Source: Gemmatimonadota bacterium
GTDB lineage: Bacteria > Gemmatimonadota > Gemmatimonadetes > Gemmatimonadales > Gemmatimonadaceae
Reading direction: 5' to 3'
Length of the DNA stretch: 64,000 bases
Assembly (NCBI GenBank): GCA_040389905.1
Contig: JAZJZK010000011.1
Coordinates: 1-64,000, forward strand
Shown here: one piece after another, positions 1 through 53,050 of the stretch
Layout: every line of letters begins with the position of its first letter
Position numbering within the stretch: the stretch's first letter is position 1
Notes under the pieces: model-generated
Databases searched by the model: none
What the model saw: only the letters and a program-made list of their open reading frames with translations
Told to the model about the DNA's origin: nothing
Translations under genes and position numbers: made by a program

Positions 1-89
1 CCCCCGGTGTCAGGATAGATGTCGCACGACCGCAGTAGCTTAAGCGGTCAAACGAACATCGCTCTTGGGGGTCACAGGTGGGTAGTGCT

Positions 90-1609: not shown

Positions 1610-1640
1610 CGCGTCATGCGACATCTATCTTGACACTCAC

Positions 1641-1705
1641 CGATTGATGGAACGCGCTGCGCGTTCTTTTATTGATCGCCTTGCAGCAGAACTTGGGCGT
1701 TACAC
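1641..1705 (+). repeat. attC-like site, right half (cut by the IS3 element)
   Basis: Central palindrome GAACGCGC-T-GCGCGTTC (1650-1666), flanking arms CGATTGAT/ATTGATCG, ending TGCAGCAGAACTTGGGCGTTACAC. Confidence 0.55.
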
Positions 1706-4278: not shown

Positions 4279-4378
4279 GCCCGCGAATCTACCATCATGC
4301 CCTGTCCAGCGCAAGCATGTGTTATGACGATACTAAGTGCGATGTCCGAGCGATCACTCTGGCTATATGCGGACGATG

Positions 4379-18807: not shown

Positions 18808-19307
18808 TGTCCCCTCCCGTTGCCCTTGCTCGCCCCGCCGTCCGCGGCTTGCGACTGCAGTTCGGCGGCGCGGTGAATTGCGGCGCGAATGCGGAGATAC
18901 GTTGCGCAGCGGCAGAGATTCTCGTTCATCGCATCGTCGATGTTCGAGTCGCTCGGCTTGGGGTTCCGCGCGAGCAACGCCGAGGCGGACATCATCTGGC
19001 CGGCCTGGCAGTATCCGCACTGCGGGACATCGAGCTCTTCCCACGCACGTTGAACGGGGTGTGTCCCGTTGGCGGACAGCCCTTCGATGGTCGTGATGTT
19101 CGCGCCTTGAACCGATGAGATCGGCGTCATGCAGGAGCGCTGCGCGGCGCCATTGAGGTGCACGGTACAGGCGCCACATTGCGAGAGGCCACAGCCGAAT
19201 TTGGTGCCCTTGAGGTCCAGCGTGTCGCGAATCGTCCAGAGCAGGGGCATGTCGCCCGGGACATCCACGGTCTTTTGCTGGCCGTTGATCTTGAAGCTGA
19301 CCTTCAT
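18804..19307 (-). CDS. (2Fe-2S)-binding small subunit (IorA-like)
   Basis: [29 protein letters not shown]. Confidence 0.95.
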
Positions 19308-19431
19308 GTGGGGACCTCGAGGAGGTGCGAGGCGGGTGGGGCAGGCGTGCCCGAATCAAAACAATCTGGGGAGTCCCCGCGGGGGAGTCCAGAGAATTCT
19401 ACGCGACAGTCCGGTAAAGCGTTTCCGATGC

Positions 19432-19570
19432 CAGATTCTCAGGGGCTCAGCTTGCCGCCACAGCCAAACAGATCTTCAGGGGGTGTGGCGTAGGGGGTGC
19501 GACGCACCCAAGCGCCACACCCCCTGAGAATCTGCTAGCTGTGGCTGACCTCTGAGCACCTGAAACCCTG
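19432..19570. repeat. Long intergenic palindromic element, copy 2
   Basis: Same arms as 15194-15379 with a shorter centre. Confidence 0.75.
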
Positions 19571-19603
19571 CAGCCTGAACCGCAGTTCAGCCTCAACGGT
19601 AGC

Positions 19604-19933
19604 TCAAACGTCGATGTAGATCGCCCCATCTTCTATGCTCAACCCAACCCCCGCCGCGGTCGCGGCCTCCTGGAGCGCCGCCTCGAGCATCACGACAGGA
19701 TCCGGACTCACGTCGAGCCGACGCATGATGCCCTCACCCTTCTTGCCCGCCGCGGTCAGCGTGACCTTGAGCCCACGACGCTTGCATTTCACGCTGGCGC
19801 CGTCAGGAAGCGTCGCATTCATGGGCTTCACGAACGCGTCGATGTAGTGCACCCCGATGCCTGACTTGTCGAGCATCACCGATGGCAGCTTGTCCTTCGC
19901 TGCTGGATTCACGTCGCAAAGCTTCTGTTTCAT
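19604..19933 (-). CDS. Hypothetical protein (109 aa), last gene of the methyl-transfer operon
   Basis: ATG at 19933 overlaps the upstream stop (ATGA). Confidence 0.7.
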   Translation of the reverse strand: MKQKLCDVNPAAKDKLPSVMLDKSGIGVHYIDAFVKPMNATLPDGASVKCKRRGLKVTLTAAGKKGEGIMRRLDVSPDPVVMLEAALQEAATAAGVGLSIEDGAIYIDV

Positions 19934-20841
19934 GCGTGTGTGCTCATGTATTGGTCCATGGCCTGCCGAAATGCGCGAATGTGATCGGGTGTGCTTCCGC
20001 AGCACCCCCCGATGATGTTTGCCCCGGCCTCGAGGAGCGGGATCACCCCCCGCACCATCTGCTCGGGTGTTTCGTCGTATACGACCTTGAGGTTCTCGAG
20101 TCGCGGCAGGCCGGCATTCGGCTGCGCCATCACGGGAAGATCCGTCGCGCCCTTGTAGCGCTGTACCGCCTCGCGCGCCCACACCATGTCCATGCCTGTT
20201 CCGCAGTTGAGCGCCACGATGTTGGCGCCCGCGTCCTGCATGAACTCGGCGGCGCGTTCCGGATCGACCCCCATCATGGTGCGAAAGGTCGAGCCGTCGA
20301 GCGTGACATCGTACGCCAGCGAGCCGATGATGCACTTGGCACCCGCGGCTTTTGCCGCGCCGATCGCCAGCCCAAGTTCCTCGAGGCCCGTCTGCGTCTC
20401 GACGATGATCGCGTCGGCGCCGGCGTCGACGAGCGCCGACGTCTGTTCCTCGAACGCTTCACGAACCTGGTCCTCCGTGAAGTCGCCATACGGTTCCATC
20501 AGTCCACCGAACGGTCCGACGTCGCCCAGGACGTAGCCCTCACGCCCGCCAAACGCGTCCCGCGCAATGCGCACGGCCGCTGCATTGATCTCCCGGACAT
20601 CGCCGGCGTATCCATGCCGGTTGAGCATGATGCGCGAACCGCCGAACGTGTTGGTGATGATGCAGTCGGCACCCGCATCCGCATAGCGCTTCTGAATGGC
20701 CAGCACGCGCTCGGGATGTGTGAGGTTCCATGCCTCACCGCACGCACCCTGCTCGAGACCGGCGAACATGAGTTGCGTGCCCATGGCGCCATCACAGAGG
20801 AGCGGGCGTTCCGCGAGTACGTCGAGGAGCAATCGGGTCAT
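19930..20841 (-). CDS. Homocysteine S-methyltransferase-family protein (stand-alone MetH Hcy domain)
   Basis: DGAMGT, TNTFG, ALNCG and GGCCG Zn ligands, QPNAGLP. Confidence 0.93.
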   Translation of the reverse strand: MTRLLLDVLAERPLLCDGAMGTQLMFAGLEQGACGEAWNLTHPERVLAIQKRYADAGADCIITNTFGGSRIMLNRHGYAGDVREINAAAVRIARDAFGGREGYVLGDVGPFGGLMEPYGDFTEDQVREAFEEQTSALVDAGADAIIVETQTGLEELGLAIGAAKAAGAKCIIGSLAYDVTLDGSTFRTMMGVDPERAAEFMQDAGANIVALNCGTGMDMVWAREAVQRYKGATDLPVMAQPNAGLPRLENLKVVYDETPEQMVRGVIPLLEAGANIIGGCCGSTPDHIRAFRQAMDQYMSTHA

Positions 20842-21383
20842 GCCGTTTCGTCAATCCGTGTAGTCGCGGCCGCGCGCTGAACTTTTTCCTGCTGCGCGAG
20901 CGCATAGTGAATCGTTTCGAGGACGAGCCCCCACTTGTGGTCTCGGCTCTCACCCTCACAATAGCAACCAGCGCCGATATCCGGTCGTTCCCATGACAGG
21001 ACATCGTCAAGCGGGTGACGAAGGAGGGGATGCTCGTGCTCGATGGCGGCCATGAGTTGAACGGGCGCCGCGCGGAAGCGGCACATGAAGCGGTGGCCCT
21101 CGTCATTCGGCGCAGGTGCGCAGCGCTCTTCGAGGATGCGGTACCCGTCAGCGCGCGGTCCGACGACAACTTCGTAATGGAATTCGAGTGCGCGGCCGGT
21201 GTTGCTGCACGTCGTGCCGTCGTAACGGAAGCGCGCGATCGTCGACCCGTCGGACTGCGGCATCAGCGTGAGTCGCTCGCTCGACCAGCGGCGAAGTGCC
21301 TTCCCGTTGACCGAGTAGCTCGCGTCGAGGCGCAACGGCTCGTCGACGCGCTCGGCGCTCGACATTTCGGCAGCGTGCGTCAT
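20838..21383 (-). CDS. Cys-rich hypothetical protein
   Basis: Translationally coupled at both ends (ATGA); TTCSN, FMC, GCYCE...HKW. Confidence 0.7.
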   Translation of the reverse strand: MTHAAEMSSAERVDEPLRLDASYSVNGKALRRWSSERLTLMPQSDGSTIARFRYDGTTCSNTGRALEFHYEVVVGPRADGYRILEERCAPAPNDEGHRFMCRFRAAPVQLMAAIEHEHPLLRHPLDDVLSWERPDIGAGCYCEGESRDHKWGLVLETIHYALAQQEKVQRAAATTRIDETA

Positions 21384-22120
21384 GACGCCACTCGGGTGCG
21401 CACGCCGGAGCGACCGTAAGCGCTCCGCCGATATTGACAGCGCGGCAGCGAGCAGCGCTCGCACGGAATGAGGTCCGTGAGTTTCGACACGCGCTCAGTT
21501 TCTCGCGTGACCCCGAATACCGCCAGCAAAGATTTCTTTGGGCGGAGCATGCCCGATTCGAGTACGCTGAGCGCGCCTGGCAACTCGCCGTCTCGACTGA
21601 AGAGCTCGAGCAATCGACCCTGCTCGGCAATGTCCCAGCCGGGATAGCCGGGGCTGTAGTGCGGGAGCACCGCGAGTCCGCGCGCGTCCGCATCCGCACA
21701 GAGCCGAGCACCGGCGAGCGTCACGAGATACTCGACGACGGCGGCGCCGTACACTTCGAGGAAGAAGTACTCGTCGGGCTTGTCGTCCATCCAGCGACGG
21801 TTCGCTTCTGCCTCGAGCTCCGGTCCCGCACTCACCGCGACGAGAATCGCGCGGTCCGCCATGGCGTCCGACAGTGTGGCGCGGAGCCGGCCACTTCGGA
21901 AGAAGGTGCCATCGACGGCCACTGCGCCATCACTCATGCGCAAGTCGCCCGTCTCGCGGGCGTAGATCCATGGGCGGCCGTGCGCCGCGTACCATACCCG
22001 CGACTCGTCGATCAGCTCGACGGCGCGATCATCGAGCTCGTGGTCGCGTGGATAGCCGAGCAGCCGATGATACTCGGCCGCCTGGACATCGATCTCCGGG
22101 GCAAAATCGACGAACGGCAT
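21380..22120 (-). CDS. MetH-type AdoMet reactivation-domain protein
   Basis: HYSPGYPGWDIAEQ, SGMLRPKKS motifs; C-terminal CxxCxxxxC. Confidence 0.8.
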   Translation of the reverse strand: MPFVDFAPEIDVQAAEYHRLLGYPRDHELDDRAVELIDESRVWYAAHGRPWIYARETGDLRMSDGAVAVDGTFFRSGRLRATLSDAMADRAILVAVSAGPELEAEANRRWMDDKPDEYFFLEVYGAAVVEYLVTLAGARLCADADARGLAVLPHYSPGYPGWDIAEQGRLLELFSRDGELPGALSVLESGMLRPKKSLLAVFGVTRETERVSKLTDLIPCERCSLPRCQYRRSAYGRSGVRTRVAS

Positions 22121-23772
22121 CAACCCTCCGCGCCCAGCGGCTGCGGGGATTCGATGCGCTTGAACTGGCATCCATCCACGAAGTAGTCGAAGAACTGCGG
22201 ATGCGTCTCGAGGCGGCAATGCTCGACTCGGCGCACGGCGTCTTCCAACTCGCGACGTTTCGCCATCGAGAGCAGTGCGATGCATGCACCTTCGATGGCG
22301 GCGTTTCCGGCTTGCACGATCTTCACGTCAGGCAAATCCGGAATCAGGCCGATTCGTTTCGCCGCGTCGAGCTTGAGATGACGGCCAAATCCGCCAGCGA
22401 GATAGAAAACGTCGACGTCATCGAACGCGATGCCGTACTGGTTGAAGATCACCTGGAGGCCAGCGACGTTCGCGCCCTTTGCCTGCGCGAGTTCGTTGAC
22501 GTCACTCTCGTTGAAGGTGATGTCGTGGGCGGCGTCAATGTCGAAGCTCGACACACCGTCGTCGAAACGACCCATATCATTCATGCGGCCCGTGCGGAGC
22601 AACTCGCTCATGATGTCGACGAGCCCCGATCCGCAGATGCCTTCAGGCGTTGTCTCGCCAATGACGCCGATCTCGAACGATCCGTCGTCGGTAACGCGCA
22701 CGTCTTCAATTGCGCCATCGAGACCAGGCATCCCGCAGACAATTGCTCCGCCCTCGAACGCCGGGCCGGCGGGGCAGGAGGCCGCGAGGATGCGATGCTT
22801 GTTGCCGAGTATCAGCTCGGTATTCGTGCCGATATCCATGACCGCGACGAGACGATCTTCGTTGGCGACGTCGACGGCGAGCATGCATGCGGCGGCGTCT
22901 GCGCCCACGTGACCGCTCACGATCGGTGCACCGTAGACCCGAGCTTCCGGATGAATGGGCAAGAGCGCGCGGCGTCCCGTCTGCACGAGACTGGTCGTCG
23001 TCCGCTTTCCTTCGGCCATCTCGATTTCCGTGATCGACTGATAGGGATTCTGCCCGATCGAATACACGCTTTGGCGAAAGAAGATGTCGCGCATGGTCGA
23101 GTTGCCGACGACCACCATTTCGTAGATCGTCCGAGGATCCACCGGCAGCGCATCGATGGCGTGCGTCAGATAGCCTGCCAGCGTCCGCATCAGCAGGTTG
23201 CCGCGATGCTCGGTGTCGTAATGAATGCGCGACATGACGTCCGACCCGCCGAAGCGCTGCGGATTCTCGAACGAGGAATCGGCAATCAGCTCGCCGCTTT
23301 CGAGGTCGAACAGTCGCAGAACCACGGTGGTCGTACCAAGGTCCATCGCCAACCCGTGAATCGGCCCAGTGGAGCGCTCGATCTCGCGACCATCGAGCAG
23401 GATGCGGTCGCCATCACGTGTGATTGCCGGCTCGAGCCGGAACGATTCATCTCGCACGGGCAGGCCGTAGGCCTGCCGCTCGATGCGCATCTGTCCGCGC
23501 CGCATCGTGTGACACTTCACCTCGCCGTCGTCGCCGACGGGCCGTGCCTGACAGGAGAGCCGGAATGCGCCGGACAAATGTGATTCGGGCGGAGTGCGCG
23601 CGGACAGCGCGTCCATCCCTTGCGTCACCTCGACCATGCATTCCTTGCACTTCCCATTCATCACACACGACGTCGGCACCTGTATGCCCAACTGCTCGGC
23701 ATACTCGAAAAGCGACAGACCATGATCTGTCGCTTCCGTGGTGGCGCCGTTGATCGTGAGCGTCAGCGCCAT
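22120..23772 (-). CDS. Reductive activator of corrinoid proteins (RACo/ASKHA ATPase with N-terminal 2Fe-2S)
   Basis: CVMNGKCKEC...RLSCQ; DLGTTT, GHVGAD, DIGTNTE, AGPAFEG, GICGSG, LAGGFG, GNAAIEG. Confidence 0.92.
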   Translation of the reverse strand: MALTLTINGATTEATDHGLSLFEYAEQLGIQVPTSCVMNGKCKECMVEVTQGMDALSARTPPESHLSGAFRLSCQARPVGDDGEVKCHTMRRGQMRIERQAYGLPVRDESFRLEPAITRDGDRILLDGREIERSTGPIHGLAMDLGTTTVVLRLFDLESGELIADSSFENPQRFGGSDVMSRIHYDTEHRGNLLMRTLAGYLTHAIDALPVDPRTIYEMVVVGNSTMRDIFFRQSVYSIGQNPYQSITEIEMAEGKRTTTSLVQTGRRALLPIHPEARVYGAPIVSGHVGADAAACMLAVDVANEDRLVAVMDIGTNTELILGNKHRILAASCPAGPAFEGGAIVCGMPGLDGAIEDVRVTDDGSFEIGVIGETTPEGICGSGLVDIMSELLRTGRMNDMGRFDDGVSSFDIDAAHDITFNESDVNELAQAKGANVAGLQVIFNQYGIAFDDVDVFYLAGGFGRHLKLDAAKRIGLIPDLPDVKIVQAGNAAIEGACIALLSMAKRRELEDAVRRVEHCRLETHPQFFDYFVDGCQFKRIESPQPLGAEG

Positions 23773-23773
23773 C

Positions 23774-24760
23774 CTACCAGCTCTTGGCCTCGAACTCCGA
23801 CTTGAGAGCGGCAGCGACTGCGGTCGCCGAGCCCTCGCGATCTTCTTCTTCGCTCCACTTGAACTGCTCGGTGTACGCATCGGCTCCCGTGAAGCCTCGC
23901 TCCTGTGCGGCCGCATCGATGCGCGCAGCGAACGCCGACGGCAGTTCGATACTGATCACATTGCCCGCGTCGTCCTCGACGCGGATCTGCGAGGGTAGCT
24001 CCTGCCAGTAGAGCACCTTGTACGTGGACTTCGTGCCTTCGACGACCGGTTCGTTCGACGCCGCTTCTGCAGCCGTGGCGGCGGCTGACGCAGCTAGCGC
24101 GTCCTCCGCGTCGTGCGCCGCGCCAGCGAGCTTGAGGAAGAGATCCACGGCCGACGATGCATTCTGCCCATACCCATCGGCACCGATTTCGTCCGCGAAC
24201 ATCTGGCTGATCGGCGCGCCGCCAATGGCCATCTTGATGTGTCCGCGCCCCGCGGCCTCGAAGCCGTCGATGACCGTCTTCATGTAAGTCATGGTCGTCG
24301 TCAGCAGCGCGCTCATGCCGATGATCGTCGGGTTCACGCGATCTGCCGCGGCCATGAACTTTTCTACGCTCTGGTCGACGCCGATGTCATGCACCTCGAA
24401 GCCGGCACCTTCGGCCATCATGCACACGAGGTTCTTGCCGATGTCGTGCAGATCGCCGCGAACGGTGCCCATCAGCAGCGTGCCGACTTGCCGCGTCGTA
24501 TTGTCCTTCGCGCTGAGCAGCGGCTTGAGCACCGCCATGCCCGCCTTCATCGCGCGTGCGGCGATGAGGACTTCCGGCACGTAGAGCACGTTGTGCTTGA
24601 AGTCCTCGCCGACGACGCTCATGCCGGCAATCAGCCCTTCATTCATGACTTCCTGGAAGTGCCGGCCCTCGGCCAGTGCGTCCTTCGTCATCTGCTCGAC
24701 TTCCTTCGCCTTTCCCTCGTAGAGGTACTGGTTCATCAACGCGTAATCAGGCATGGCCAT
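23774..24760 (-). CDS. Corrinoid (B12-binding) protein with an extra C-terminal Virulence_fact-like domain
   Basis: Cap domain GLIAGMSVVG; DLHDIG (DxHxxG); SALLTTT; Ala-rich linker then YWQELPSQI...IDAAA. Confidence 0.9.
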   Translation of the reverse strand: MAMPDYALMNQYLYEGKAKEVEQMTKDALAEGRHFQEVMNEGLIAGMSVVGEDFKHNVLYVPEVLIAARAMKAGMAVLKPLLSAKDNTTRQVGTLLMGTVRGDLHDIGKNLVCMMAEGAGFEVHDIGVDQSVEKFMAAADRVNPTIIGMSALLTTTMTYMKTVIDGFEAAGRGHIKMAIGGAPISQMFADEIGADGYGQNASSAVDLFLKLAGAAHDAEDALAASAAATAAEAASNEPVVEGTKSTYKVLYWQELPSQIRVEDDAGNVISIELPSAFAARIDAAAQERGFTGADAYTEQFKWSEEEDREGSATAVAAALKSEFEAKSW

Positions 24761-24761
24761 T

Positions 24762-25823
24762 CTAGCTCCGTCGCTTGGCGTTGAACTCGTCGAGCGCCTG
24801 ACGCATGGCAATGATGTTTTCTCTGGGCATTCCCGGGCTGGTTCCGCCGCCGACGGACAAAATCATGCCGCTGCCGTCTGGATTCGTCCCCGCGGCCAGG
24901 ATCTCCAGCGTCGCTTCGCGCACTTCCTCGGGGGTGCCACGCACGCCGATCTCGAGCGGATTCACGTTCCCCAGCAAGCACATGCGCTTGCCAACCCGCT
25001 CCTTGACCTCGCTGATGTCGGTCTGCTTGCCCCAGTTGAGGACGTTGAAACCCGCATCCGGCAGATGGTCGAGGCACGCCTGCACTTCCGCGTCATTGTG
25101 GTAGAGCTTGACCCAGTCTTTCGGGAATGCGTCGCAGATGCGCTTCAGGTAGGGGTGCGCGAACTCGAGGTAGTGCTCCTCGTTCACGAAGCCGACGATG
25201 TCATCAAGGATGAAGATCCCCTCGACCTGGTCGCCGATCACCTTGTGCTGCGCCTTGAGCCAGTCGATGATGACGTTCGTGCAGAGATCGATCAACCGGT
25301 GCGTCTCTTCCGGCTTCTCGACGATCTCGATCATCAGGTGCGTCGTGCTCCGAACGAAGCCGGCGGTGCAGAGAGGTCCGCGCGCGGTGACGAACGGGAT
25401 GACCTCGCCGAGCGCCTTGATGCGCGGAAGGGCCATCTTGTAGCGGTGGAGCGTCATGGCCGCGAACGCGTCTGCCTCGACCTCGTATTCGGGGAATTCG
25501 TCGATGTCCTCGAGCCGATAAAGCGTGTGATACTCACTCGGCGTGTTGTCTTCCCAGAACTTGATCTTGGCGCCCAGGATCGACGGTTCGGCGGCCATTC
25601 CGTACTCCATCCACCAGGATGGAACCATGATGATGTCCTTGAACTCCTCATTGATCTGCTTGTTCGATTCGAACCAGAGATCGGGGTTCAGATAGTAGTC
25701 CATGTGCTTGATGCCCAGATACCCTGGGATCCACGGACTGTCGACGATGAGCGCCATCGGCACTTCGTCTTGCGGCTCGAGCCGAGCGGCACGCTTGAAA
25801 GTTTCCCACTGCTCCGGACGCAT
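24762..25823 (-). CDS. Uroporphyrinogen decarboxylase-family methyltransferase (MtaA/CmuA-like)
   Basis: GPL, YLEFAHPYLKRI, LYHND, LLGNVNP, GTPEEV, ILSVG; adjacent to a corrinoid protein. Confidence 0.85.
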   Translation of the reverse strand: MRPEQWETFKRAARLEPQDEVPMALIVDSPWIPGYLGIKHMDYYLNPDLWFESNKQINEEFKDIIMVPSWWMEYGMAAEPSILGAKIKFWEDNTPSEYHTLYRLEDIDEFPEYEVEADAFAAMTLHRYKMALPRIKALGEVIPFVTARGPLCTAGFVRSTTHLMIEIVEKPEETHRLIDLCTNVIIDWLKAQHKVIGDQVEGIFILDDIVGFVNEEHYLEFAHPYLKRICDAFPKDWVKLYHNDAEVQACLDHLPDAGFNVLNWGKQTDISEVKERVGKRMCLLGNVNPLEIGVRGTPEEVREATLEILAAGTNPDGSGMILSVGGGTSPGMPRENIIAMRQALDEFNAKRRS

Positions 25824-26064
25824 GGCGATCCTCAGGAATGGACGGCTGGCGCGCGAATCCGCGCCTGGTTGGCGAATCTAAGGCGGTGTGGTAGCTGACG
25901 TTACCACGATAGCTGGCTTTCGCACTTTTGGCGAACAAAAAAGAGGTTGCCCTCAACGAGGCAGGCTTCCGCTCCGTTCTACCGGAAGGTATGATGACCA
26001 GAGGACTTTGAAAGAATGAGAGTTTGGAGAGTCCTTGTCAAGCGTGATCGCAGCCGAGGGGTGA

Positions 26065-27669
26065 ATGGATACTCTGCGTGAAAAGCTGGAGGGTTCGAGC
26101 CGCTTCCTGATAGGAAGCGAACTTGTGTCCGTGCGCGGCGGCATGGCCGAGCGAAGTGCGGTGAAGGCGCGTGACTTTGCGAACCAGATGGTGGCGTGCA
26201 AGGAAATCGACTGGATCTCGATCACGGATAACGCCGGTGGCAATCCGCAGCTCGCCCCGATGGCGCTCGGGAAGCCCATCCTGTACGCGGGCAAGGAGGT
26301 CGTCATCCACCTCACGTGCAAGGACTTGAACCGAAACGGCCTCGAGAGCGAGGCGTGGCTCCTCCATAGCGAGGGCTTCAACAACGTCCTCGCCATGACC
26401 GGCGACTATCCCAACACGCGCGGCGGCGGCACGGCGAAGCCGGTTTTCGACATCGACTCCGTGGCACTCGTCGCCAAACTGAACGAGATGAACCATGGTC
26501 TCGTTCCCAAGGACGCCAGTGGAGCCCCCTCCGGCACGCCGCTCGGCAAAACAAATTTTACGATCGGCGCTGTCACGACGAACTACAAGTTCCACGAAGG
26601 CGAGGTGATGCCGCAGTACCTCAAGCTCGAAAAGAAGGTGGCGAGCGGCGCGCGATTCATCATCAATCAGGTCGGCTACGACTCCCGAAAGGCGCACGAA
26701 CTCCGCCTCTACATGGATTGCCATGCGATGGAGCGGGTTCCGCTCATTGGCAATGTGTATGTGCTCAATGCCCGCGTCGCGAAGATTTTCAGCGAATCTC
26801 GCGTACCGGGCATCGTCGTCTCCGAGCCGCTCCTGCGGCTGTGCGAGGAGCGCGGAAAGGGTCCCGACAAGGGACGCGAGTTCTTCCTCGAACTCGCCGC
26901 GAAGCAGATGGCCATCTTCCGCGGACTCGGTTACCGCGGTGTGTACCTCGGCGGTATTTACGGCTTCGCCGCCACGGAACGCATTCTCGAAATCGAACGG
27001 AGCTTCGCTCCCGACGATTGGCGCTATTTCGCGCGTGAGATTTCCTTCTCGCGCTCGGGTGAGTTCTTCTACTACGCACACGACGCGGCCACCGGTCTCG
27101 CCGACCCCAGCCGTCGCGGCCCCGACACGCCACCGCGACGACGCGGTCTGCATCCTATCTATCGCATTTCGAAGTGGACGCACAAAGCCATCTTCGCGTC
27201 GGACAGCCCGCTCGCCCCGTGGGGCGCCAGGTTGAGTGCCAATGCGAAAGACCCGATGCAGGGGCCATCCGCGCTTCGGGTCGTCGAGCATCTGAGCAAA
27301 TCGGCCATGTTTGGCTGCAAGGATTGCGGCGACTGCTCGCTCCCGGAAATCGCGTACCTCTGTCCCGAATCACAGTGCGCCAAGAACCAGCGGAACGGTC
27401 CCTGCGGCGGGACGCGTGACGGACGCTGTGAGGTTGACGGTTTCGGGGACTGCATCTGGTTGCGCGCGTACGAGCGCGAGAAGCCCGATGGCACGGCGGA
27501 GGGCCTGCTCGCGCACTCGCCCGTGGTCCAGAATCAGGCGCTTCGCGGGACCTCTTCCTGGGCAAACCATTGGCTGGGACGGGATCACACGGCGGCACGA
27601 CTGACTGCCGTCACGCACGACGACGCGCGCACCGCGCGGCCGCAAACGACGAAGGGGACATCCGAATGA
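26065..27669 (+). CDS. metF: Methylenetetrahydrofolate reductase with a fused C-terminal Cys-rich MetV/MTHFR_C-like domain
   Basis: ITDN, HLTCKDLN, MTGDYP, KKVASGARFIINQ; CKDCGDC...CP...CAK...GPCGG...C...CIW. Confidence 0.85.
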   Translation: MDTLREKLEGSSRFLIGSELVSVRGGMAERSAVKARDFANQMVACKEIDWISITDNAGGNPQLAPMALGKPILYAGKEVVIHLTCKDLNRNGLESEAWLLHSEGFNNVLAMTGDYPNTRGGGTAKPVFDIDSVALVAKLNEMNHGLVPKDASGAPSGTPLGKTNFTIGAVTTNYKFHEGEVMPQYLKLEKKVASGARFIINQVGYDSRKAHELRLYMDCHAMERVPLIGNVYVLNARVAKIFSESRVPGIVVSEPLLRLCEERGKGPDKGREFFLELAAKQMAIFRGLGYRGVYLGGIYGFAATERILEIERSFAPDDWRYFAREISFSRSGEFFYYAHDAATGLADPSRRGPDTPPRRRGLHPIYRISKWTHKAIFASDSPLAPWGARLSANAKDPMQGPSALRVVEHLSKSAMFGCKDCGDCSLPEIAYLCPESQCAKNQRNGPCGGTRDGRCEVDGFGDCIWLRAYEREKPDGTAEGLLAHSPVVQNQALRGTSSWANHWLGRDHTAARLTAVTHDDARTARPQTTKGTSE

Positions 27670-28595
27670 CGCAGACCGTCAAGATCATCGGCGACCAGAT
27701 CAACAACGCATATGGTCGCGCGCGCCGAGCGTGGGAGGCGCGCGATCCTGCCGGCTATCAGGAGCTTGCCCGCATGCAGGCTGACAAGGGCGCCGAAGCA
27801 ATCGATCTCAATGTCGACGGCACTGCGCGGCTGTCGGTACGCGTCGAGGAGATGCTGGCGTTTCTGCCGATCGTCGTGCCGGCCATCCAGGACGCGACTG
27901 ACGTCGCGATCTGCTTCGACAATCCGGGGCTGCAGTATCATCAGGTCGGGCTCAAGGCACTCGACCGGAGCCGCTGCCGCACCAAGCCGATTCTCAATTC
28001 CCTGGCGGCGTCGCGTGAGCAGCTCGACGAAATGATCGAGCTGGTGAAGGAGTACGACATGCGCCCGATCGTCATGGCGTCGGAGCGCTTTCTTCCCGAG
28101 GGCGGCGGCGCGCAGTGCTTCGACCCGCAGGACTGCTACAAGACGGTCCTTCAGTTCGTGGACATGCTCGTGACGAAAGCCGATCGGACGGTCGATGACA
28201 TCATCATCGATCCCGGACTGGCTCCCGTTGGCGCGGACACGTACGGCCTGGTCAATATCGGACTCGATGCGATGAAGCTCATCACGGCGGATCCGAACCT
28301 CAAGGGCATTCATTTCTCGGTTGGACTCACGAACTTCGCGTGGGGCACGCCGAAGGGCGTGCGCGACCTGTTGGAGCAGGCGTACCTGACCATTGCCAGC
28401 GAGATTGGACTGGACATGGCGCTTGCGAACATCGAGCGAGCGCCGCAGCCGTTGCCGGCGGACCACGAGATCGTGGCGAGCTTGCGCGAGGCGCTCGAGG
28501 GTGGTCGCGCGGGTGAGGGAGAAAGCCAGGAAGACGCGGGCTTCCGTCAGGCGACGATGATCATGGATATTTGTCGGCCGTATACCGAAGAATAG
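27666..28595 (+). CDS. Pterin-binding methyltetrahydrofolate:corrinoid methyltransferase (AcsE/MetH folate-domain-like)
   Basis: IIGDQIN, GAEAIDLN, ILNS, IIIDP, GLTNFAWG; ATGA overlap with metF. Confidence 0.85.
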   Translation: MTQTVKIIGDQINNAYGRARRAWEARDPAGYQELARMQADKGAEAIDLNVDGTARLSVRVEEMLAFLPIVVPAIQDATDVAICFDNPGLQYHQVGLKALDRSRCRTKPILNSLAASREQLDEMIELVKEYDMRPIVMASERFLPEGGGAQCFDPQDCYKTVLQFVDMLVTKADRTVDDIIIDPGLAPVGADTYGLVNIGLDAMKLITADPNLKGIHFSVGLTNFAWGTPKGVRDLLEQAYLTIASEIGLDMALANIERAPQPLPADHEIVASLREALEGGRAGEGESQEDAGFRQATMIMDICRPYTEE

Positions 28596-28621
28596 ATGGC
28601 CAGTCCGGGCGCGTTCTTCAC

Positions 28622-28761
28622 CGCAGAGGACGCAGAGGAGCAGAGGAACGCAGAGGAAAAGCAACAGCGGGTGCAGACCACTCGCTGCGCTACGGGCGAT
28701 AAACCAGGCATCGTCATCTGCACTTCCGCTCGTTTTGTCGCCCTGAGCGAAGCGAAGGGCC
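28622..28761 (+). repeat. Two REP-like half elements
   Basis: GCAGAGG-family arm (28622-28657) and TTTGTCGCCCTGAGCGAAGCGAAGGGCC (ending at about 28761; a similar sequence is at about 15256-15285). Confidence 0.65.
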
Positions 28762-28786
28762 CGCACCTTCTGTTGGCGCTGTTCGA

Positions 28787-30058
28787 ATGACAAGCGAACC
28801 GATTGACCCGTCGCGCCTCGCTGCCGCAAACGGCCCCGTGTGGCTGCACGTCGGCACGCTGATCGACGGCGCCAGTACGTCGGCGGCGCACGATGTTCAT
28901 GTCGTCTACAATGCATCGTCGGTCCTGTTTATCGGACGCGCGGGGCTTACGCCGCCACGCGCGCTGCTCCGCGAGGGTCAGTCAACGCCAGACGTCGTCG
29001 CGCCTGAGAGCACGCTGCTGCCAGGATTGACCGACGCGCACGTGCACCTCTTCCTCGACGGCGCAGAGCTCGACCTCGGACGGCGCGCTGAACAAGTGCG
29101 TCGCCCGCTCGCGGAGCTCTTGCCAGCAGCCACGAAACGTCTCGAAAAACTACTGGATAGCGGCGTGATCGCGGTCAGGGATGCCGGCGACAAGCAGGGC
29201 GTTGGGCTCGCGTTGAATCGTCTCTCCCGATCGGCGGCCGCCCCGATGCCGTATCTCGACAGTCCCGGTGCAGGGATTCACCGAAAGGGACGGTACGGCT
29301 CGTTCATGGGTGGTGCGCTCGACGACTTCGACTCGCCGGAGGCGTGCGTTGCATCGCGCATCGAGGCGGGTGCCGCTCGCATCAAGATCATCGCCACGGG
29401 GATCATCGACTTTCGTGCAGGGACCATCACGTCCGAGCCGCAGATGCGTACCGACGAACTCGCGCGGATCGTGGCTGCGGCGCGCGCTGCGGGGCTCCAG
29501 ACGCTGGCGCACGCCTCGGGCGACGCGGGCATCGAGCGCGTGATCGACGCCGGTGTGGACTCCGTCGAGCACGGCTACTTCGTCCGCGACGACCAGCTCG
29601 CACGAATGCGCGATTTGGGGATCGCGTGGGTGCCGACCTTTGCTCCGCTGCACCAGCAGATCGCGCATGCGGATGTGATGGGATGGGACTCCCGCACCGT
29701 CGACAACATCCGGCGGATTCTCGACGGCCATGCGGCGAGCTTGCGCCGCGCGCACGAGTTGGGGGTGATCATCGTAGCCGGGAGCGATGCCGGATCATTC
29801 GGCGTGGCGCACGGCTCGGGGCTGCATCTGGAGCTTGAACTCATGGTGGCGGCTGGGCTTCCAGATCTGGCCGTGATCAACTCTGCCACCGGAGCGGGAG
29901 CGGCGCGATTCGAGTACCGGGAGCGGTTTGGACTGATCGCCGAAGGCTACCGACCACGGTTCATCCTTTCGCACGGTTCGGGTACCACCGTTCCAGAGAC
30001 GGGGACGCCTCTTTTCGACGGCCAGGTGCGGGGCCTGGGCTCGCAGGCATCCAACTAG
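28787..30058 (+). CDS. Metal-dependent amidohydrolase
   Basis: DAHVHL, AHA, EHG, GSDAG. Confidence 0.88.
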   Translation: MTSEPIDPSRLAAANGPVWLHVGTLIDGASTSAAHDVHVVYNASSVLFIGRAGLTPPRALLREGQSTPDVVAPESTLLPGLTDAHVHLFLDGAELDLGRRAEQVRRPLAELLPAATKRLEKLLDSGVIAVRDAGDKQGVGLALNRLSRSAAAPMPYLDSPGAGIHRKGRYGSFMGGALDDFDSPEACVASRIEAGAARIKIIATGIIDFRAGTITSEPQMRTDELARIVAAARAAGLQTLAHASGDAGIERVIDAGVDSVEHGYFVRDDQLARMRDLGIAWVPTFAPLHQQIAHADVMGWDSRTVDNIRRILDGHAASLRRAHELGVIIVAGSDAGSFGVAHGSGLHLELELMVAAGLPDLAVINSATGAGAARFEYRERFGLIAEGYRPRFILSHGSGTTVPETGTPLFDGQVRGLGSQASN

Positions 30059-30070
30059 GGATGGGGGAGC

Positions 30071-30380
30071 GGGCTCGGGCCCGGGCCAACCGCAGGCTTG
30101 GGCGCGGGCTTGGGCCAGGGCTGGGGCTTGGGCTGACCTTCAGGCGGGGGCAGGGGCTTGGGCCGCGGGCCGGGGCCTGTCCCGACCATGACGGGCGAGC
30201 CCTCTCCCCGGCCCCCTCCCGAGCCCCGAGCCTGCGGGCAAGCCCGGGCTCGGGCCCTAGCCCCGGCCCGCGGCCAAGCCCGCGGTTGGCCCGGGCCCGA
30301 GCCCCAGCCCGCGGTTGGCCCGGGCCCGAGCCCCGGCCCGCGGCCAAGCCCGCGGTTGGCCCGGGCCCGAGCCCCAGCCC
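30071..30380. repeat. Very GC-rich direct/inverted repeat tract
   Basis: 52-bp direct repeat (30259-30310, 30329-30380); GGGCTCGGGCCCGGGCCAACCGC at 30071 is the inverse of the internal unit. Confidence 0.8.
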
Positions 30381-30484
30381 CATCGTGACCCAGCGGTCGG
30401 TTTTCAGTGGCGGCCGGCGTCCCTTAACATGTGCGCGAACTGTTCGTCTGGTATGTTGGATCCTTATTCCCTTGGAGATCACCA

Positions 30485-32542: not shown

Positions 32543-33358
32543 ATGACATCACCATCGCTCGACCTCACGGGCCGAATCGCTGTTGTGAGCGGCGGCTACG
32601 GCGTCCTTGGCTCGTCTCTCGCCTCCGGCCTCGCGGCAGCCGGCGCCCGCGTCGCCATTCTCGGCCGCCGCCGCGAGGCGGCCGAGGAGAAAGCGGAGGA
32701 AATACGCGCGACGGGCGCGGAGGCGGTCGTACTCGTCGCCGATGTCCTCGACGACGCGGGGCTGCGCGTCGCACGCGATGAGCTCCTCGCCACATGGGGG
32801 CGCGTCGACATCCTGATCAATGCGGCGGGCGGCAACGTCATGCGCGCGCGCAACGACAACAGCAGCATCTTCGACGTTCCCCTCGACGCGTTCGACGAAG
32901 TGCTTCGCCTGAACCTTCATGGCACCACGATTCCGTCGCTCGTCTTCGCCGAGGCGATGGCGCAGCAGCGCTCGGGGTGCCTGGTGAACATTTCATCGAT
33001 GGCGGCCAGCCGAGTACTGAGCGGCGTGCTGGGGTACTCCATCGCCAAGACGGGCATTGATAGCTTCACCCGGTGGATGTCGGTCGAGCTGGCGCGAAAG
33101 CATGGCGATGGCCTGCGCGTGAACGCGATCGTCCCCGGCTTCTTCGTCTCGACGCAGAACAGAAAGGTGCTCATCAACGACGACGGGTCATACACCGAAC
33201 GAGCGGTCAACATCATTGCGCATACGCCCATGGGGCGTTTTGGCCGGCCGGAGGAACTGATCGGCGCGGTGCAGTGGTTGTGTAGCGACGCGGCGTCGTT
33301 CGTGACAGGCGCGGTCATACCGGTAGACGGCGGGTACAGCCTGTTCAGTGGGGTCTAG
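32543..33358 (+). CDS. SDR-family oxidoreductase (D-mannonate oxidoreductase-like)
   Basis: SGGYGVLG, NAAGGN, YSIAK, VNAIVPGFF, TPMGRFG. Confidence 0.9.
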   Translation: MTSPSLDLTGRIAVVSGGYGVLGSSLASGLAAAGARVAILGRRREAAEEKAEEIRATGAEAVVLVADVLDDAGLRVARDELLATWGRVDILINAAGGNVMRARNDNSSIFDVPLDAFDEVLRLNLHGTTIPSLVFAEAMAQQRSGCLVNISSMAASRVLSGVLGYSIAKTGIDSFTRWMSVELARKHGDGLRVNAIVPGFFVSTQNRKVLINDDGSYTERAVNIIAHTPMGRFGRPEELIGAVQWLCSDAASFVTGAVIPVDGGYSLFSGV

Positions 33359-35060: not shown

Positions 35061-36227
35061 CTACCGTCGACGAGTTGAAAATGCCTCTCGCATAGTCTCG
35101 CGGTCGGGCTGCTGATAACTCTCCACAAGAGTTCGTTCGTTCTTCCACCCGCCGTAGTACGCGAGGTCCTTCAGCGGCATATGCCTGAAGTCATTGGAGA
35201 GTTTCCTACGGAGCGAATGCAGTCCCATGCCCTTTTCCCTCCGCAGGCCCGCAAGCAACTCGGCCTTCTTCCACCATTTGATAAGGGTCCCACGACTCAG
35301 GGGGCGCTTACCATCGCGCGGACTTGGGAAGAGCCATTCAGAGGTTGTGGCTGAGTCAGTACTCCGCATGAGCTTAAGAACGCACATGCCCTCTGGAGTT
35401 ACGGGTGTTGTATGCTCGAACCGCACCTTATCGAACTCCGGAACCCACGTGATTGTGTTGGCGGCGAAGTCAACATCACGAAGCTTTAGATGTCGAAGTG
35501 AATGCGTTCGGTGACCGGTTTCGTGTGCGAGTACTAGAAACGCAGCGAACGACGGATGCACCTTTTCTGCCACTGCGAGGAGAGCCTCGTAGTCTTCGGT
35601 GCTGGCGATAGGCCGACGAGGAGTCGGCTTTGGCAACTTGAATTCAAGAAGAGGATTTCGTGTGAGCAATCTGCCGCGCTTTCCATTGCCGGTCGCCATT
35701 GCCCAATTGAACACTGCGCGGAGAACCCGCAGTTCGCAGTGAATTGTCGCGTCCTCAACAGCGCCCTTCTGCTCTCCAACCAACAATCGACCTGTACTTC
35801 GCCCACTCACGAAGTCATCGAAGTCTCTCTTCTCCAAGTCGAGCGGCTTTCGCCCAAGCCCGAACGACTTCCTGAAAAGCAACACGCAACGCGCGACTTC
35901 CTTTCTCCGTGCATCAGTCATCCTGCTGTTGTTCGATGCGTACTGGAGATACATGTCAAACAGCTTGTCCAGGCTCAGTTCTTCAGTCTGGATCTCATTC
36001 TTGCGGAGCGCGACAGCCATCTCCGCCGCTTGATCCGCCGCCTTCTCGCGGTCGGCATGACGCAGACTTGTCCGGCGCTTTGTGCCTCCGCCAGCTTCGT
36101 CCAGCTCTTGGTACTCGAGCAAAATGTGCCCCGACTTCTTGTCGAGATACGCTCGGACCCTGTTGCGTCCCTTCAGTCCGGCGTAGCAACTCCAAGCCTT
36201 CTTTCGTTTCTTGGCCATCGTCGTCAA
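35061..36227 (-). CDS. Tyrosine recombinase / phage-type integrase
   Basis: TGHR, K, HSLRR, GW, SY catalytic pattern; LRAVFNWA core-binding region. Confidence 0.92.
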   Translation of the reverse strand: MTTMAKKRKKAWSCYAGLKGRNRVRAYLDKKSGHILLEYQELDEAGGGTKRRTSLRHADREKAADQAAEMAVALRKNEIQTEELSLDKLFDMYLQYASNNSRMTDARRKEVARCVLLFRKSFGLGRKPLDLEKRDFDDFVSGRSTGRLLVGEQKGAVEDATIHCELRVLRAVFNWAMATGNGKRGRLLTRNPLLEFKLPKPTPRRPIASTEDYEALLAVAEKVHPSFAAFLVLAHETGHRTHSLRHLKLRDVDFAANTITWVPEFDKVRFEHTTPVTPEGMCVLKLMRSTDSATTSEWLFPSPRDGKRPLSRGTLIKWWKKAELLAGLRREKGMGLHSLRRKLSNDFRHMPLKDLAYYGGWKNERTLVESYQQPDRETMREAFSTRRR

Positions 36228-53047: not shown

Positions 53048-53050
53048 CGA

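Follow-up and report, generated by a model that had tools for sequence, protein, structure and literature searches.

A one-corrinoid methyl-transfer cluster with a URO-D-fold donor enzyme in a Gemmatimonadota bacterium, and its putative link to methyl-glucuronate from xylan

A gene cluster in a 64,000-nucleotide stretch of a Gemmatimonadota genome (the window) matches, by its predicted domains, the MtgBCDE hub architecture, apart from the donor enzyme, which is an uncharacterised URO-D-fold methyltransferase (MT1). Very probably the cluster has the architecture of a methyl-transfer hub built on one corrinoid protein. The donor methyl probably comes from the methyl-glucuronate route of xylan use. 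We give about even chances to the narrower prediction that MT1 directly O-demethylates 4-O-methyl-glucuronate or a close derivative, feeding methionine and folate. If true, this would tie the decay of wood to one-carbon metabolism. A literature search found no paper on this cluster.

Layout and conservation of the cluster

A sequence-only reading had described two divergent, tightly coupled operons with named domains. All ten ORFs and both operons were confirmed at 19604-30058, with Pfam matches over cut-off for seven of the ORFs, and the features of the region are as follows.

19604..19933, minus strand: 109-aa conserved protein without known family, likely accessory to corrinoid reactivation
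19930..20841, minus strand: homocysteine S-methyltransferase module (Hcy-MT, MtgE/Bmt-like); S-methyl_trans PF02574, 213 bits
20838..21383, minus strand: Cys-rich domain corresponding to the C-terminal half of an activation protein, its own ORF in the host and fused in most homologues
21380..22120, minus strand: MetH-type (TM0269-like) SAM-dependent activation domain, then a C-x2-C-x4-C motif; profile match 1j6r
22120..23772, minus strand: RACo/RamA-like ATP-dependent corrinoid reductive activator with N-terminal 2Fe-2S ferredoxin; PF00111, PF17651 and PF14574 over cut-off (Fer2, RACo middle, RACo C-terminal)
23774..24754, minus strand: corrinoid protein (hub) with fused C-terminal PF13769 domain; PF02607, PF02310, PF13769 (B12-binding and cap)
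24762..25823, minus strand: URO-D-fold methyltransferase (MT1), predicted donor-specific enzyme; URO-D PF01208
25824..26064, no strand: divergent intergenic region, 241 bp, single copy in the genome
26065..27669, plus strand: MetF-MetV fusion, predicted methyl-THF oxidation; MTHFR PF02219 and MTHFR C-terminal (Cys-rich) PF12225 over cut-off
27666..28595, plus strand: pterin-binding methyl-corrinoid:THF methyltransferase (MT2, AcsE/MtgD-like); Pterin_bind PF00809
28596..28786, no strand: intergenic gap with short genome-wide repeats (REP-like); 263 blastn hits in the genome, depth spike
28787..30058, plus strand: metal-dependent amidohydrolase (prolidase/ochratoxinase-like subgroup); Amidohydro_1 PF01979, best PDB match 2qs8, E 1e-25
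32543..33358, plus strand: UxuB, D-mannonate oxidoreductase (fructuronate reductase), glucuronate-specific step; NF006132 342.9 bits, cut-off 281

Neighbouring genes are separated by -4, -4, -4, -1, 1 and 7 bp on the left, by the 241-bp divergent region, and by -4 and 191 bp on the right. The tight coupling therefore stands for most junctions (-4 to 7 bp) but not for the amidohydrolase, which is loosely coupled across its 191-bp gap and has a genome-wide repeat in front of its gene. No sigma-70 consensus was found in the divergent region, and no Rfam family in the window, this region included. The suggested profile assignments were recovered for URO-D, B12-binding, RACo, S-methyl_trans, Pterin_bind and MTHFR/MTHFR C-terminal, but the Pfam search gave no PF02965 hit for the activation ORF; for this ORF, the Cys-rich ORF and the 109-aa ORF, neither Pfam nor NCBIfam gave a match at E ≤ 0.01.

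The cluster is common to soil bacteria of six phyla. For comparison, the best 80 of at least 579 loci were used, near kin included and many cut by contig ends, with MT1 at 77-91% identity. URO-D was present in 80/80 of these best loci, the corrinoid protein in 78, RACo in 65, the activation protein in 55, Hcy-MT in 52 and the 109-aa protein in 51; since the gene set recurs in this way, its grouping is not due to chance, and the genes are conserved together as had been supposed. The right operon is optional: MetF-MetV was present in 21 of the 80 best loci and occurred together with MT2 and the amidohydrolase in 19, the amidohydrolase never standing alone. The THF branch was not found in any of 151 genomes of one order, nine carriers among them, or in genomes G030 and G201, which contradicts the description of the cluster as a self-contained fixed unit.

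The corrinoid hub, its reactivation and its acceptors

The corrinoid protein has a D-x-H-x-x-G motif at 101, and its best NCBIfam models, those for MtgC, scored 164-177 bits, below cut-off. When the 80 best loci were scored by one script for PF13769, the domain was fused to the corrinoid protein in 18 and separate in 41, the other 21 being unscorable or without the domain. The RACo ORF reached 285 bits with the AcsV model, also below cut-off. A MetH-type reactivation domain had been proposed for the ORF at 21380..22120, and two lines of evidence agree with it: a profile match to Thermotoga maritima TM0269 (1j6r, E 0.0054), and the fold of a fused homologue from G030 (65% identical), which matched 1j6r with TM 0.85 over 197 residues (E 5.8e-11). 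TM0269 is a stand-alone MetH activation domain, whereas here the C-x2-C-x4-C motif and a Cys-rich domain without PDB match follow, and the RACo gene lies beside it.

Although the reactivation domain and the Cys-rich protein are separate ORFs in the host, as first read, they form a single protein of 400-440 aa in 45 of 50 loci scored among the best 80 of at least 579. The host split sits in a variable linker and was seen again in an independent assembly, possibly from the same reads. Five Cys residues are conserved in the Cys-rich domain, which in the fused homologue has a confident predicted fold with no PDB fold match below E 0.08.

On the acceptor side, Hcy-MT retains the zinc motifs Cys213 and Cys280-Cys281. 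MT2 found AcsE (2e7f, E 6e-18) as its best PDB match and scored below cut-off with AcsE models. In locus L069 the split parts are replaced by a full metH behind MT1 and the corrinoid gene, supporting homocysteine as an acceptor. The 109-aa protein gave no Atlas hit and is 63-74% identical across 40 aligned homologues. Its gene stands directly behind Hcy-MT in 37 of 51 loci, behind the activation protein in 10 and behind neither in 4, and accompanies the reactivation module where the cluster is rearranged; the protein is likely an accessory to corrinoid reactivation.

One corrinoid protein is thus present with a URO-D donor enzyme, Hcy-MT, pterin methyltransferase, RACo and activation domain, as the sequence-only reading had it. 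The hybrid hub design that it proposed is not new, since MtgBCDE (PMC12478193) and a split MetH (PMC5764234) precede it. As excerpted there, MtgBCDE is the glycine-betaine demethylase/split methionine synthase of marine Roseobacters (Ruegeria pomeroyi, Phaeobacter inhibens), in which one corrinoid protein likewise joins donor methyltransferase, MtgE and MtgD modules, with a metF paralogue beside the pterin module, a RamA-like activator and aerobic heterotroph hosts. Its donor enzyme MtgB is of the MttB family (PF06253), whereas MT1 has the URO-D fold (PF01208). Unlike the excerpted MtgBCDE, the present cluster has a MetH-type activation domain, an extra Cys-rich domain and the 109-aa protein. 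It also differs in that no DUF1638 was seen, that its host retains a full metH beside it, that its pterin branch is dispensable in other loci, and that the context is xylan/glucuronate instead of betaine.

A search elsewhere in the genome returned a full-length metH over cut-off and a yitJ-type gene on contig C32, so the cluster does not replace MetH. It is improbable that the cluster is a second split methionine synthase, with the URO-D protein a methyl acceptor or Mlp-type S/Se-methyltransferase and the sugar genes bystanders. All four MetH modules do lie in the window, the top fold match of MT1 is MtaA, an MT2, and MtgD is proposed to be bidirectional in the excerpt of PMC12478193. However, the pterin module is missing in many carriers, which leaves the core unable to draw methyl from THF; the host already has metH, and the sugar-acid context described below is far above chance. 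Type 1 mlp clusters, as excerpted in PMC10418091, also combine a URO-D methyltransferase, a corrinoid protein and Ram/RACE in non-methanogens, but have two or more methyltransferases with a His-Cys-Cys site in strict anaerobic Firmicutes. Here a THF methyltransferase lies within 2 kb, and a single URO-D gene with His-x-Asp and no third Cys places the cluster outside that definition.

The donor enzyme MT1

The top fold match of MT1 was MtaA 4ay7 at 20% identity, with His242-x-Asp244 and Gly326 aligned to the His-x-Cys and Cys of MtaA. Among wider representatives His242 was found in 65/65 and Asp or Glu at 244 in 62/65. By the criterion excerpted from PMC10418091, the predicted metal site is O-type, not S-type. 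Many Trp, Tyr, Arg, Lys and acidic residues of MT1 are also invariant, which suggests a larger polar substrate.

That MT1 is the host's HemE is extremely unlikely and has been largely refuted. MT1 is the sole PF01208 match in the host genome, and databases label its homologues 'uroporphyrinogen decarboxylase'. Against this, it scored 64 bits with the hemE model (cut-off 303) and 89 bits with the MtaA/CmuA model, both below cut-off; a separate hemE over cut-off was present in each of the four other carriers tested; neither gene occurs in a 97% complete genome from the host's genus; and MT1 sits on a long branch away from HemE. The N-terminal motif of HemE is absent.

CE15 enzymes, present in the host, cleave lignin-carbohydrate esters. 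A lignin- or ferulate-derived methoxy-aromatic donor, as for OdmB/VdmB/MtvB, would suit the O-type metal site of MT1, and the characterised URO-D O-demethylases in the excerpt of PMC13222342 all act on methoxy-aromatics. Such a donor is nevertheless improbable: no recurring family for aromatic ring cleavage or for aromatic transport appeared among the scanned neighbours (a single P450, in L021), and MT1 is related only distantly to CdmB (E 4e-10), which the same excerpt places near the O-demethylases. For URO-D methyltransferases overall, that text lists methoxy-aromatics and haloalkanes as substrates and no aliphatic sugar ether, which counts against 4-O-methyl-glucuronate as well. The acetogen four-component O-demethylases and Cdm share with the present cluster a URO-D MT1, corrinoid protein, THF MT2 and ATP-dependent activator (PMC13222342, as excerpted). 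Here, unlike in those systems, a homocysteine module and SAM-type reactivation are added, MT1 shares about 20% identity with solved members, the predicted substrate is a sugar acid, and the cluster is carried by soil Acidobacteriota, Planctomycetota, Gemmatimonadota and others. A search for fhs in this host found none, in keeping with the absence of acetogen context noted before.

Xylan and glucuronate context

GH67, GH115 and CE15 are families acting on the (4-O-methyl)glucuronate side chain of xylan. They were found in 22, 7 and 11 of the 80 best loci, respectively; any of them occurred in 28/80, and in 16 of 39 full-length loci, with 1.5-3.2 expected under random placement. The 28 loci come from five phyla and are dispersed across the MT1 tree, while the other 52 of the 80 best, which lack all three families, speak against a methyl-glucuronate donor. 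Among these best loci, the same-strand gene immediately upstream of MT1 is GH115 in three (with one in-frame join besides), a glucarate-dehydratase-like enolase in five, GH67 in two and uxuA in one. In five related Acidobacteriota loci MT1 heads a hexuronate transporter-GH43-GH67 run, with the corrinoid genes about 9 kb off. Four loci reached by drawing genomes at random rather than through their neighbourhood are each surrounded by genes for sugar acids or xylan; in G303 MT1 lies without corrinoid genes amid xylonate dehydratase, GH3, GH115 and GH67. In G030 uxuB-uxuA-MT1-corrinoid-RACo-activation-HcyMT-109aa run in one direction, uxuB-uxuA-methyltransferase being the order in the host family's other carrier, and uxuB orthologues adjoin the cluster in L009, L011 and G030. 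For the methyl substrate, to which the sequence-only reading gave no name, this context points to the (4-O-methyl)glucuronate branch of xylan use as the probable source.

Across genomes, alpha-glucuronidase was found in 2/2 carriers of the host's family (background 21/201), in 8/9 carriers of one order of 151 genomes (GH67 in 36/151) and in 8/9 carriers of a second order of 86 genomes (GH115 in 26/86; GH67 alone in just 4/9 carriers). The tested alpha-glucuronidase family was absent from carriers G261 and G377. Since the pectin controls GH28 (7/9 carriers, 26/151 genomes) and CE8 (6/9 carriers, 29/86 genomes) are enriched too, genome-wide co-occurrence is not xylan-specific.

This pectin signal would fit a different donor, either some other O-methyl sugar of plants or a methyl uronate derived from pectin or arabinogalactan, for example 2-O-methyl-fucose, 2-O-methyl-xylose or methyl-galacturonate. 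Some Vicinamibacterales loci adjoin galacturonate genes (kduI, uxaA, kdgK, eda, GH28), the kduI-uxaA-kdgK-eda set adjoining 3-4 loci; GH28 lies 9 kb from MT1 in G249, and the host carries a complete galacturonate locus on contig C59. We regard this source as unlikely, because the 80 best loci favour glucuronate by 28 to 1 (GH28 0, PL10 0, CE8 1), the linked catabolic genes are uxuB/uxuA with uxaB in 0/80, and no rhamnogalacturonan-II enzyme family appeared in 154 further neighbours (E ≤ 1e-12).

The main rival, slightly less doubtful yet still unlikely, is methanol capture. The linked dehydratase, either UxuA on 3-O-methyl-mannonate or the glucarate-dehydratase-like enolase on 4-O-methyl-glucarate, could release the methoxy group as methanol by elimination, so that no sugar demethylase would be needed, and MT1 would be a new type of methanol:corrinoid methyltransferase salvaging that methanol. 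The methoxy carbon is the leaving position in both reactions, uxuA or the enolase lies directly upstream of MT1 in six of the 80 best loci and in G030, and Enterobacter asburiae JDR-1 reportedly releases methanol from methyl-glucuronate. However, CE8, the main plant methanol source, occurs in one of the 80 best loci; the methanol methyltransferases known to us are MtaB-family, not URO-D; the invariant residues of MT1 suggest a larger substrate; and the host is without uxuA and encodes a PQQ alcohol dehydrogenase that might be an alternative methanol sink.

The host encodes two GH67, GH115, three CE15, GH10, uxaC, kdgK, eda, xylA and xylB, with no GH67, GH115 or CE15 in its own 64-kb window. 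At E < 1e-20 tblastn gave one uxuB hit in the genome, and this gene sits 2.5 kb away from the cluster, outside 19604-30058. Neither uxuA nor another mannonate dehydratase was found in the genome (84.6% complete), nor a close homologue of the cluster-linked enolase; these gaps count against the methyl-glucuronate reading.

With methyl-glucuronate as donor, GH67, GH115 and CE15, whose activities are known for the families, would free (4-O-methyl)glucuronate. RACo (ATP, 2Fe-2S) and the SAM-dependent activation protein would hold the corrinoid at Co(I), two repair routes that may suit an oxygen-exposed host. MT1 would bind the ether oxygen at its His-x-Asp metal site and methylate Co(I). Hcy-MT, part of the conserved core, would then form methionine, judging by its family; MT2 would form methyl-THF, to be converted by MetF-MetV to methylene-THF and by FolD and GlyA passed to the C1 pool, a direction suggested by the MetF2/MtgD precedent. 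The demethylated uronate would proceed through UxaC, UxuB, mannonate dehydratase, KdgK and Eda. Cytochrome P450 enzymes acting on O-methyl sugars of algae likewise remove an O-methyl group that blocks sugar catabolism, but that route is oxidative and oxygen-dependent (PMC6292453, as excerpted), whereas here the methyl would be conserved on B12.

Organization of the cluster and identity of its predicted donor methyltransferase

All ten ORFs of the cluster (19604–30058) were recovered where the sequence-only reading had placed them, and named Pfam domains scored over cut-off in 7 of the 10. The left operon (minus strand) encodes a 109-aa protein, a homocysteine methyltransferase (Hcy-MT), a Cys-rich ORF, an activation ORF, RACo, a corrinoid protein, and MT1, a URO-D-fold (PF01208) predicted donor methyltransferase (24762–25823). 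The right operon (plus strand) encodes a MetF–MetV fusion, MT2 (a pterin-binding, PF00809, THF methyltransferase), and an amidohydrolase, and 241 bases separate the two. The tight coupling claimed for both operons was seen in the left one (gaps of −4, −4, −4, −1, 1, and 7 bases) and once in the right (−4), but not before the amidohydrolase, where the gap is 191 bases. GC content was equal in cluster and genome (63.1 and 63.4%, respectively).

Matches over cut-off to PF02310/PF02607, PF00809, and PF02574 correspond to stand-alone corrinoid, pterin, and homocysteine modules. A D-x-H-x-x-G motif is present in the corrinoid protein and three zinc cysteines in the homocysteine module, presumably in their customary roles. 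The corrinoid protein also carries a fused domain:

23774–24754, residues about 243–326: PF13769 ("Virulence_fact") as the C-terminal domain

In most homologous loci this domain is a separate 84-aa gene; corrinoid accessory domain seems a more fitting description than the family name.

The activation ORF, which had been called a reactivation domain, had no match in Pfam, PF02965 included. The call was nonetheless upheld by a profile of 32 homologues, which matched T. maritima TM0269 over the length of the ORF (E 0.0054). An AlphaFold model (pLDDT 89) of the fused homologue from G030, the other carrier of the cluster in the host's family, aligned to TM0269 (1j6r) with a TM score of 0.85; this homologue has the fold of the AdoMet-binding reactivation domain, matching 1j6r, 8sse, and 6bm5. 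By the modelled fold of this homologue, the activation protein is a MetH-type reactivation domain, predicted to bind SAM and to remethylate Co(II). The Cys-rich ORF is not the separate protein it was first taken for: it forms one polypeptide with the activation ORF in 45 of 50 loci, and the split in the window sits in a variable linker. Assembly error at the split was rejected on the basis of an independent contig, identical letter for letter though possibly from the same reads. Searches of Pfam, NCBIfam, and the Atlas returned nothing usable for the 109-aa protein or the Cys-rich domain, nor did Foldseek for the latter. No riboswitch match to Rfam was found in the window or in 8 other loci, the host's metH region among them, and therefore no inference is made on regulation; promoter and terminator scans gave matches at chance level.

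HemE was rejected as an identity for MT1, which scored 64 bits against the TIGR01464 cut-off of 303 and in which the N-terminal Arg motif is absent. The score with the MtaA/CmuA family model TIGR01463 was likewise below cut-off (88.6 versus 235.4 bits). For the MT1 model (pLDDT 82), MtaA (20% identity) gave the top fold match, followed closely by structures of HemE. Alignment to MtaA places His242, Asp244, and Gly326 of MT1 opposite His, Cys, and Cys; His242 is kept in all 65 wider full-length representatives, and Asp/Glu244 in 62. According to Kountz and Balskus (PMC10418091), His-Cys-Cys denotes S/Se-methyltransferases, and carboxylate or non-ligand substitutions denote O-methyltransferases. 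By that rule MT1 is of the O-type, with a metal site predicted from its sequence. The rule is only a guide because CdmB, of the same family, works without a metal (PMC13222342). The MT1 tree, made by a quick method, held only the clade and four HemE sequences. A separate hemE was present in 4 of 4 other carriers tested, and G022, a genome of the host's genus (97% complete), contains neither MT1 nor hemE. Canonical hemE was not found in either the host or G022, for which an alternative haem route is possible.

Distribution and conserved core

At least 579 relatives of MT1 were detected in one scan, and the best 80, 76–91% identical, define the loci analysed here; judged by record title, these 80 belong to Gemmatimonadota, Planctomycetota, Acidobacteriota, Verrucomicrobiota, Bacteroidota, and Ignavibacteriota. 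The family is tight, with one of 65 full-length representatives at 73% identity and the next at 40% or less. Its distribution is patchy: it occurs in 2 of 201 genomes of the host's family and in 9 of 151 and 9 of 86 genomes of two other orders.

Conservation of the gene set, as the sequence-only reading had anticipated, was apparent across the 80 loci, many of them cut by contig ends: corrinoid protein in 78, RACo in 65, activation protein in 55, Hcy-MT in 52 (one match being a domain of the full metH of locus L069), and 109-aa protein in 51. For the right operon, these same truncated loci gave MetF–MetV in 21, MT2 in 21 (again counting one domain of that metH), and the amidohydrolase in 19. 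All three were found together in 19 loci, and divergent from MT1, as in the window, in 11. The description of the set as self-contained, THF branch included, could not be sustained, with MT2 absent from many carriers. Searches for MT2 were negative in G030 (100% complete), in G201, and in all 151 genomes of one order, nine carriers among them (a set without a positive control); MT2 was found in G202–G204. It follows from the absence of MT2 from many carriers that the conserved core runs from donor to corrinoid to homocysteine, with the folate branch an add-on. A minimal run, MT1–corrinoid–Hcy-MT, is present in G310.

Several variants were also observed. At L069:10052–16137, MT1 and a corrinoid gene are followed by a full-length metH over cut-off, replacing the split Hcy/pterin modules. 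Genome G204 has the cluster twice (L051 and L081, contigs C12 and C19), one copy with many frame breaks and possibly a strain duplicate in the bin. In L044, L068, L078, and L082, where no amidohydrolase was seen, purU, for formyl-THF deformylase, is located within the cassette or next to it. The amidohydrolase may have a similar formate-releasing role; no close purU was found in the host.

The host genome (5.08 Mb, 84.6% complete) contains a full metH (1123 bits; cut-off 1011), and the cluster is therefore not a replacement for one. A yitJ-type gene on contig C32, folD, and glyA are also present. In agreement with the lack of acetogen context noted earlier, fhs was not found in this 84.6% complete genome; nor were uxuA and cobS.

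Genomic context of the methyl donor

Hardwood and grass xylan is decorated by 4-O-methyl-glucuronic acid, and three enzyme families, GH67, GH115, and CE15, act on xylan's (4-O-methyl)glucuronate side chain. Genes were called in the 80 loci with a codon model, giving 1152 genes in 410 families; annotation covered 43 recurring families and 154 more proteins, and 188 further families of at least 230 aa were listed, obvious housekeeping being skipped. GH67 was found in 22 loci (one a 66-aa edge fragment), GH115 in 7, and CE15 in 11 (one 29% identical). At least one of the three was present in 28 of the 80 loci and 16 of the 39 full-length ones, counts that near kin inflate, as against 1.5–3.2 expected from random placement of 6–10 such genes. 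When uronate reductase-like SDRs (16), a glucarate-dehydratase-like enolase (9), kdgK, and uxuA were counted as well, the total rose to 41 of 80. The pectin controls GH28 and PL10 were found in none of the 80 loci and CE8 in 1; neither uxaB nor uxaC was found in any. No aromatic-degradation or methylamine family recurred among the annotated neighbours. Loci without GH67, GH115, or CE15 number 52 of 80, the window itself also lacks them, and galacturonate genes adjoin some loci.

In 11 loci, and in one in-frame join, a GH115, GH67, enolase, or uxuA gene lies directly before MT1 on the same strand. The join, an apparent GH115–MT1 fusion (L050:7265–11074, one 1269-aa frame), was given no weight; the two are separate genes in three related loci, and the frame may be a long-read error. 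Five related loci have MT1 at the head of a hexuronate transporter–GH43–GH67 run and the corrinoid genes about 9 kb off, and in G303, where 19.5 kb of sequence contains no corrinoid gene, it lies within a xylan locus. Where MT1 is apart from the corrinoid genes, then, the gene predicted to set substrate specificity remains beside those for xylan use.

At the level of whole genomes, alpha-glucuronidase was present in 2 of 2 carriers versus 21 of 201 genomes in the host's family, and in 8 of 9 versus 36 of 151 in one order; GH115 was present in 8 of 9 carriers of the second order versus 26 of 86 (a background that includes the unpublished genome G395), where GH67 alone was in 4 of 9. Pectin controls were likewise enriched in carriers (GH28, 7 of 9 versus 26 of 151; CE8, 6 of 9 versus 29 of 86). 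Genome-level co-occurrence thus failed as a test of xylan specificity and shows plant-polysaccharide use, not xylan. Fisher values exaggerate the associations, because related genomes and loci are not independent of one another. In the host itself, GH67 is present twice and CE15 three times, a GH115 belongs to a GH3/GH10/GH43 xylan locus, and xylA and xylB were found, as was a galacturonate locus (uxaC, uxaB, kduI, kdgK, eda, and GH28). The host's only close copy of uxuB, for D-mannonate oxidoreductase (NF006132, 342.9 bits; cut-off 281), lies within the window at 32543–33358 (plus strand), 2.5 kb beyond the amidohydrolase. For the host's uronate route, no mannonate dehydratase was found.

UxuA eliminates at C3 of mannonate, and glucarate dehydratase at C4 of glucarate. 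Passage through UxaC and UxuB would bring the 4-methoxy carbon to C3 of mannonate, and oxidation to glucarate would leave it at C4, in each case the position of elimination. UxuA or a glucarate dehydratase-like enzyme might expel methanol from the methylated sugar acid, for MT1 then to capture; E. asburiae JDR-1 reportedly releases methanol from methyl-glucuronate. CE8, however, is almost missing from the loci (1 of 80), which speaks against a role of free methanol as the donor. In G030, uxuB–uxuA lies immediately before MT1. The enolase (L047:3822–5066 and 8 other loci, 75–98% identical) is linked to MT1, SDR, and GH67, and is a candidate mannonate or methyl-uronate dehydratase.

Direct removal of the O-methyl group by MT1, from 4-O-methyl-glucuronate or a derivative, is the reading we prefer. 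We give an even chance to the cluster being the first corrinoid-dependent sugar O-demethylase, widespread in soil bacteria, which would convert the 4-O-methyl of xylan glucuronic acid to methionine or to carbon bound to folate. On this reading two reactivation devices would protect the enzyme in air, and one of them would have a Cys-rich domain not described before and its own 109-aa partner. The cluster is real, widespread, and uncharacterized, a B12 hub whose specific and testable substrate prediction could about equally hold or fail. With a highly conserved candidate in abundant soil phyla, the question is directly testable with three purified proteins. If correct, demethylation by MT1 would add sugar ethers to the aromatic ethers, amines, and halides used by B12 methyltransferases, and would link the decay of plant cell walls with methionine synthesis and the demand for B12 in soil; it would also offer a means of using hemicellulose hydrolysates in full. 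Methylated sugars are described as resistant to bacterial degradation (PMC6292453). Capture of methanol would still make MT1 a new methanol methyltransferase family.

Known systems and surroundings in the window

The hub design is itself already known. In the MtgBCDE system, MtgC is a hub between MtgB, MtgD, and MtgE, and metF2 downstream of mtgD oxidises methyl-THF (Mausz et al., PMC12478193); a split synthase accompanied by a RamA-like protein and DUF1638 has also been described (Price et al., PMC5764234). As in MtgBCDE, the corrinoid, pterin, and homocysteine modules of the window cluster are separate proteins. The donor enzyme of MtgBCDE, MtgB, is of the MttB family (PF06253), whereas the gene in the donor position here is PF01208. 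No PF06253 protein was found among the ten cluster proteins or the neighbours scanned, and the corrinoid protein fell below the MtgC cut-offs (NF047996, 177 versus 370 bits; NF047995, 164 versus 310 bits). MtgBCDE is needed for methionine in P. inhibens and R. pomeroyi, in which MetH is absent, whereas the present host has metH. For these three reasons the cluster is not a member of the MtgBCDE system, although it appears to work like that hub.

With the four-component O-demethylases of acetogens (Odm/Vdm/Mtv) the cluster shares a URO-D superfamily MT1, corrinoid protein, THF MT2, and activator encoded together, and a predicted metal site in which a carboxylate or a non-ligand takes the place of the Cys ligands. 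It differs in adding the homocysteine module and a second reactivation device. The Odm/Vdm/Mtv enzymes demethylate methoxy-aromatics; no aromatic genes were found among the neighbours scanned here. A type 1 mlp cluster, defined by at least two Mlps, a His-Cys-Cys site, and no THF methyltransferase within 20 kb (PMC10418091), was rejected, as the genome has one PF01208 gene, the site reads His-x-Asp/Gly, and a PF00809 gene lies 1.8 kb away. The sugar demethylases found in print are P450s (PMC6292453). Open-access PMC and bioRxiv yielded no paper on a corrinoid sugar demethylase or this gene set, and no enzyme assigned to removing the 4-O-methyl of methyl-glucuronate, supplements aside; clade members may be included in Supplementary Data 3 of PMC13222342, which lists homologues of CdmB, and in the SI of PMC12478193.

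Other features of the window are as follows.

78–4649: transposase-like ORFs from two or more insertion sequences, where the contig begins (translations only)
16567–19307, minus strand: molybdopterin oxidoreductase pair (2Fe-2S small subunit with large subunit), adjoining the cluster on its left
19308–19603: intergenic repeat, 55 blastn hits in the genome
28596–28786: intergenic repeat, 263 blastn hits
30059–30430: intergenic repeat, 103 blastn hits
49823–63104, plus strand: complete class I DISARM operon, drmD-drmMI-drmA-drmB-drmC (all best PADLOC hits)

The three repeats, each different, flank or interrupt the cluster; that at 28596–28786 consists of short repeats in the 191-base gap before the amidohydrolase, and that at 30059–30430 is a low-complexity GC-rich array. 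The region around DISARM has a lower GC content and begins with an integrase-like ORF (35061–36218); it also holds ORFs for a UvrD-like helicase, a primase-like protein, and a Ser/Thr kinase. The same molybdopterin oxidoreductase pair flanks the cluster in loci L008, L046, and L047.
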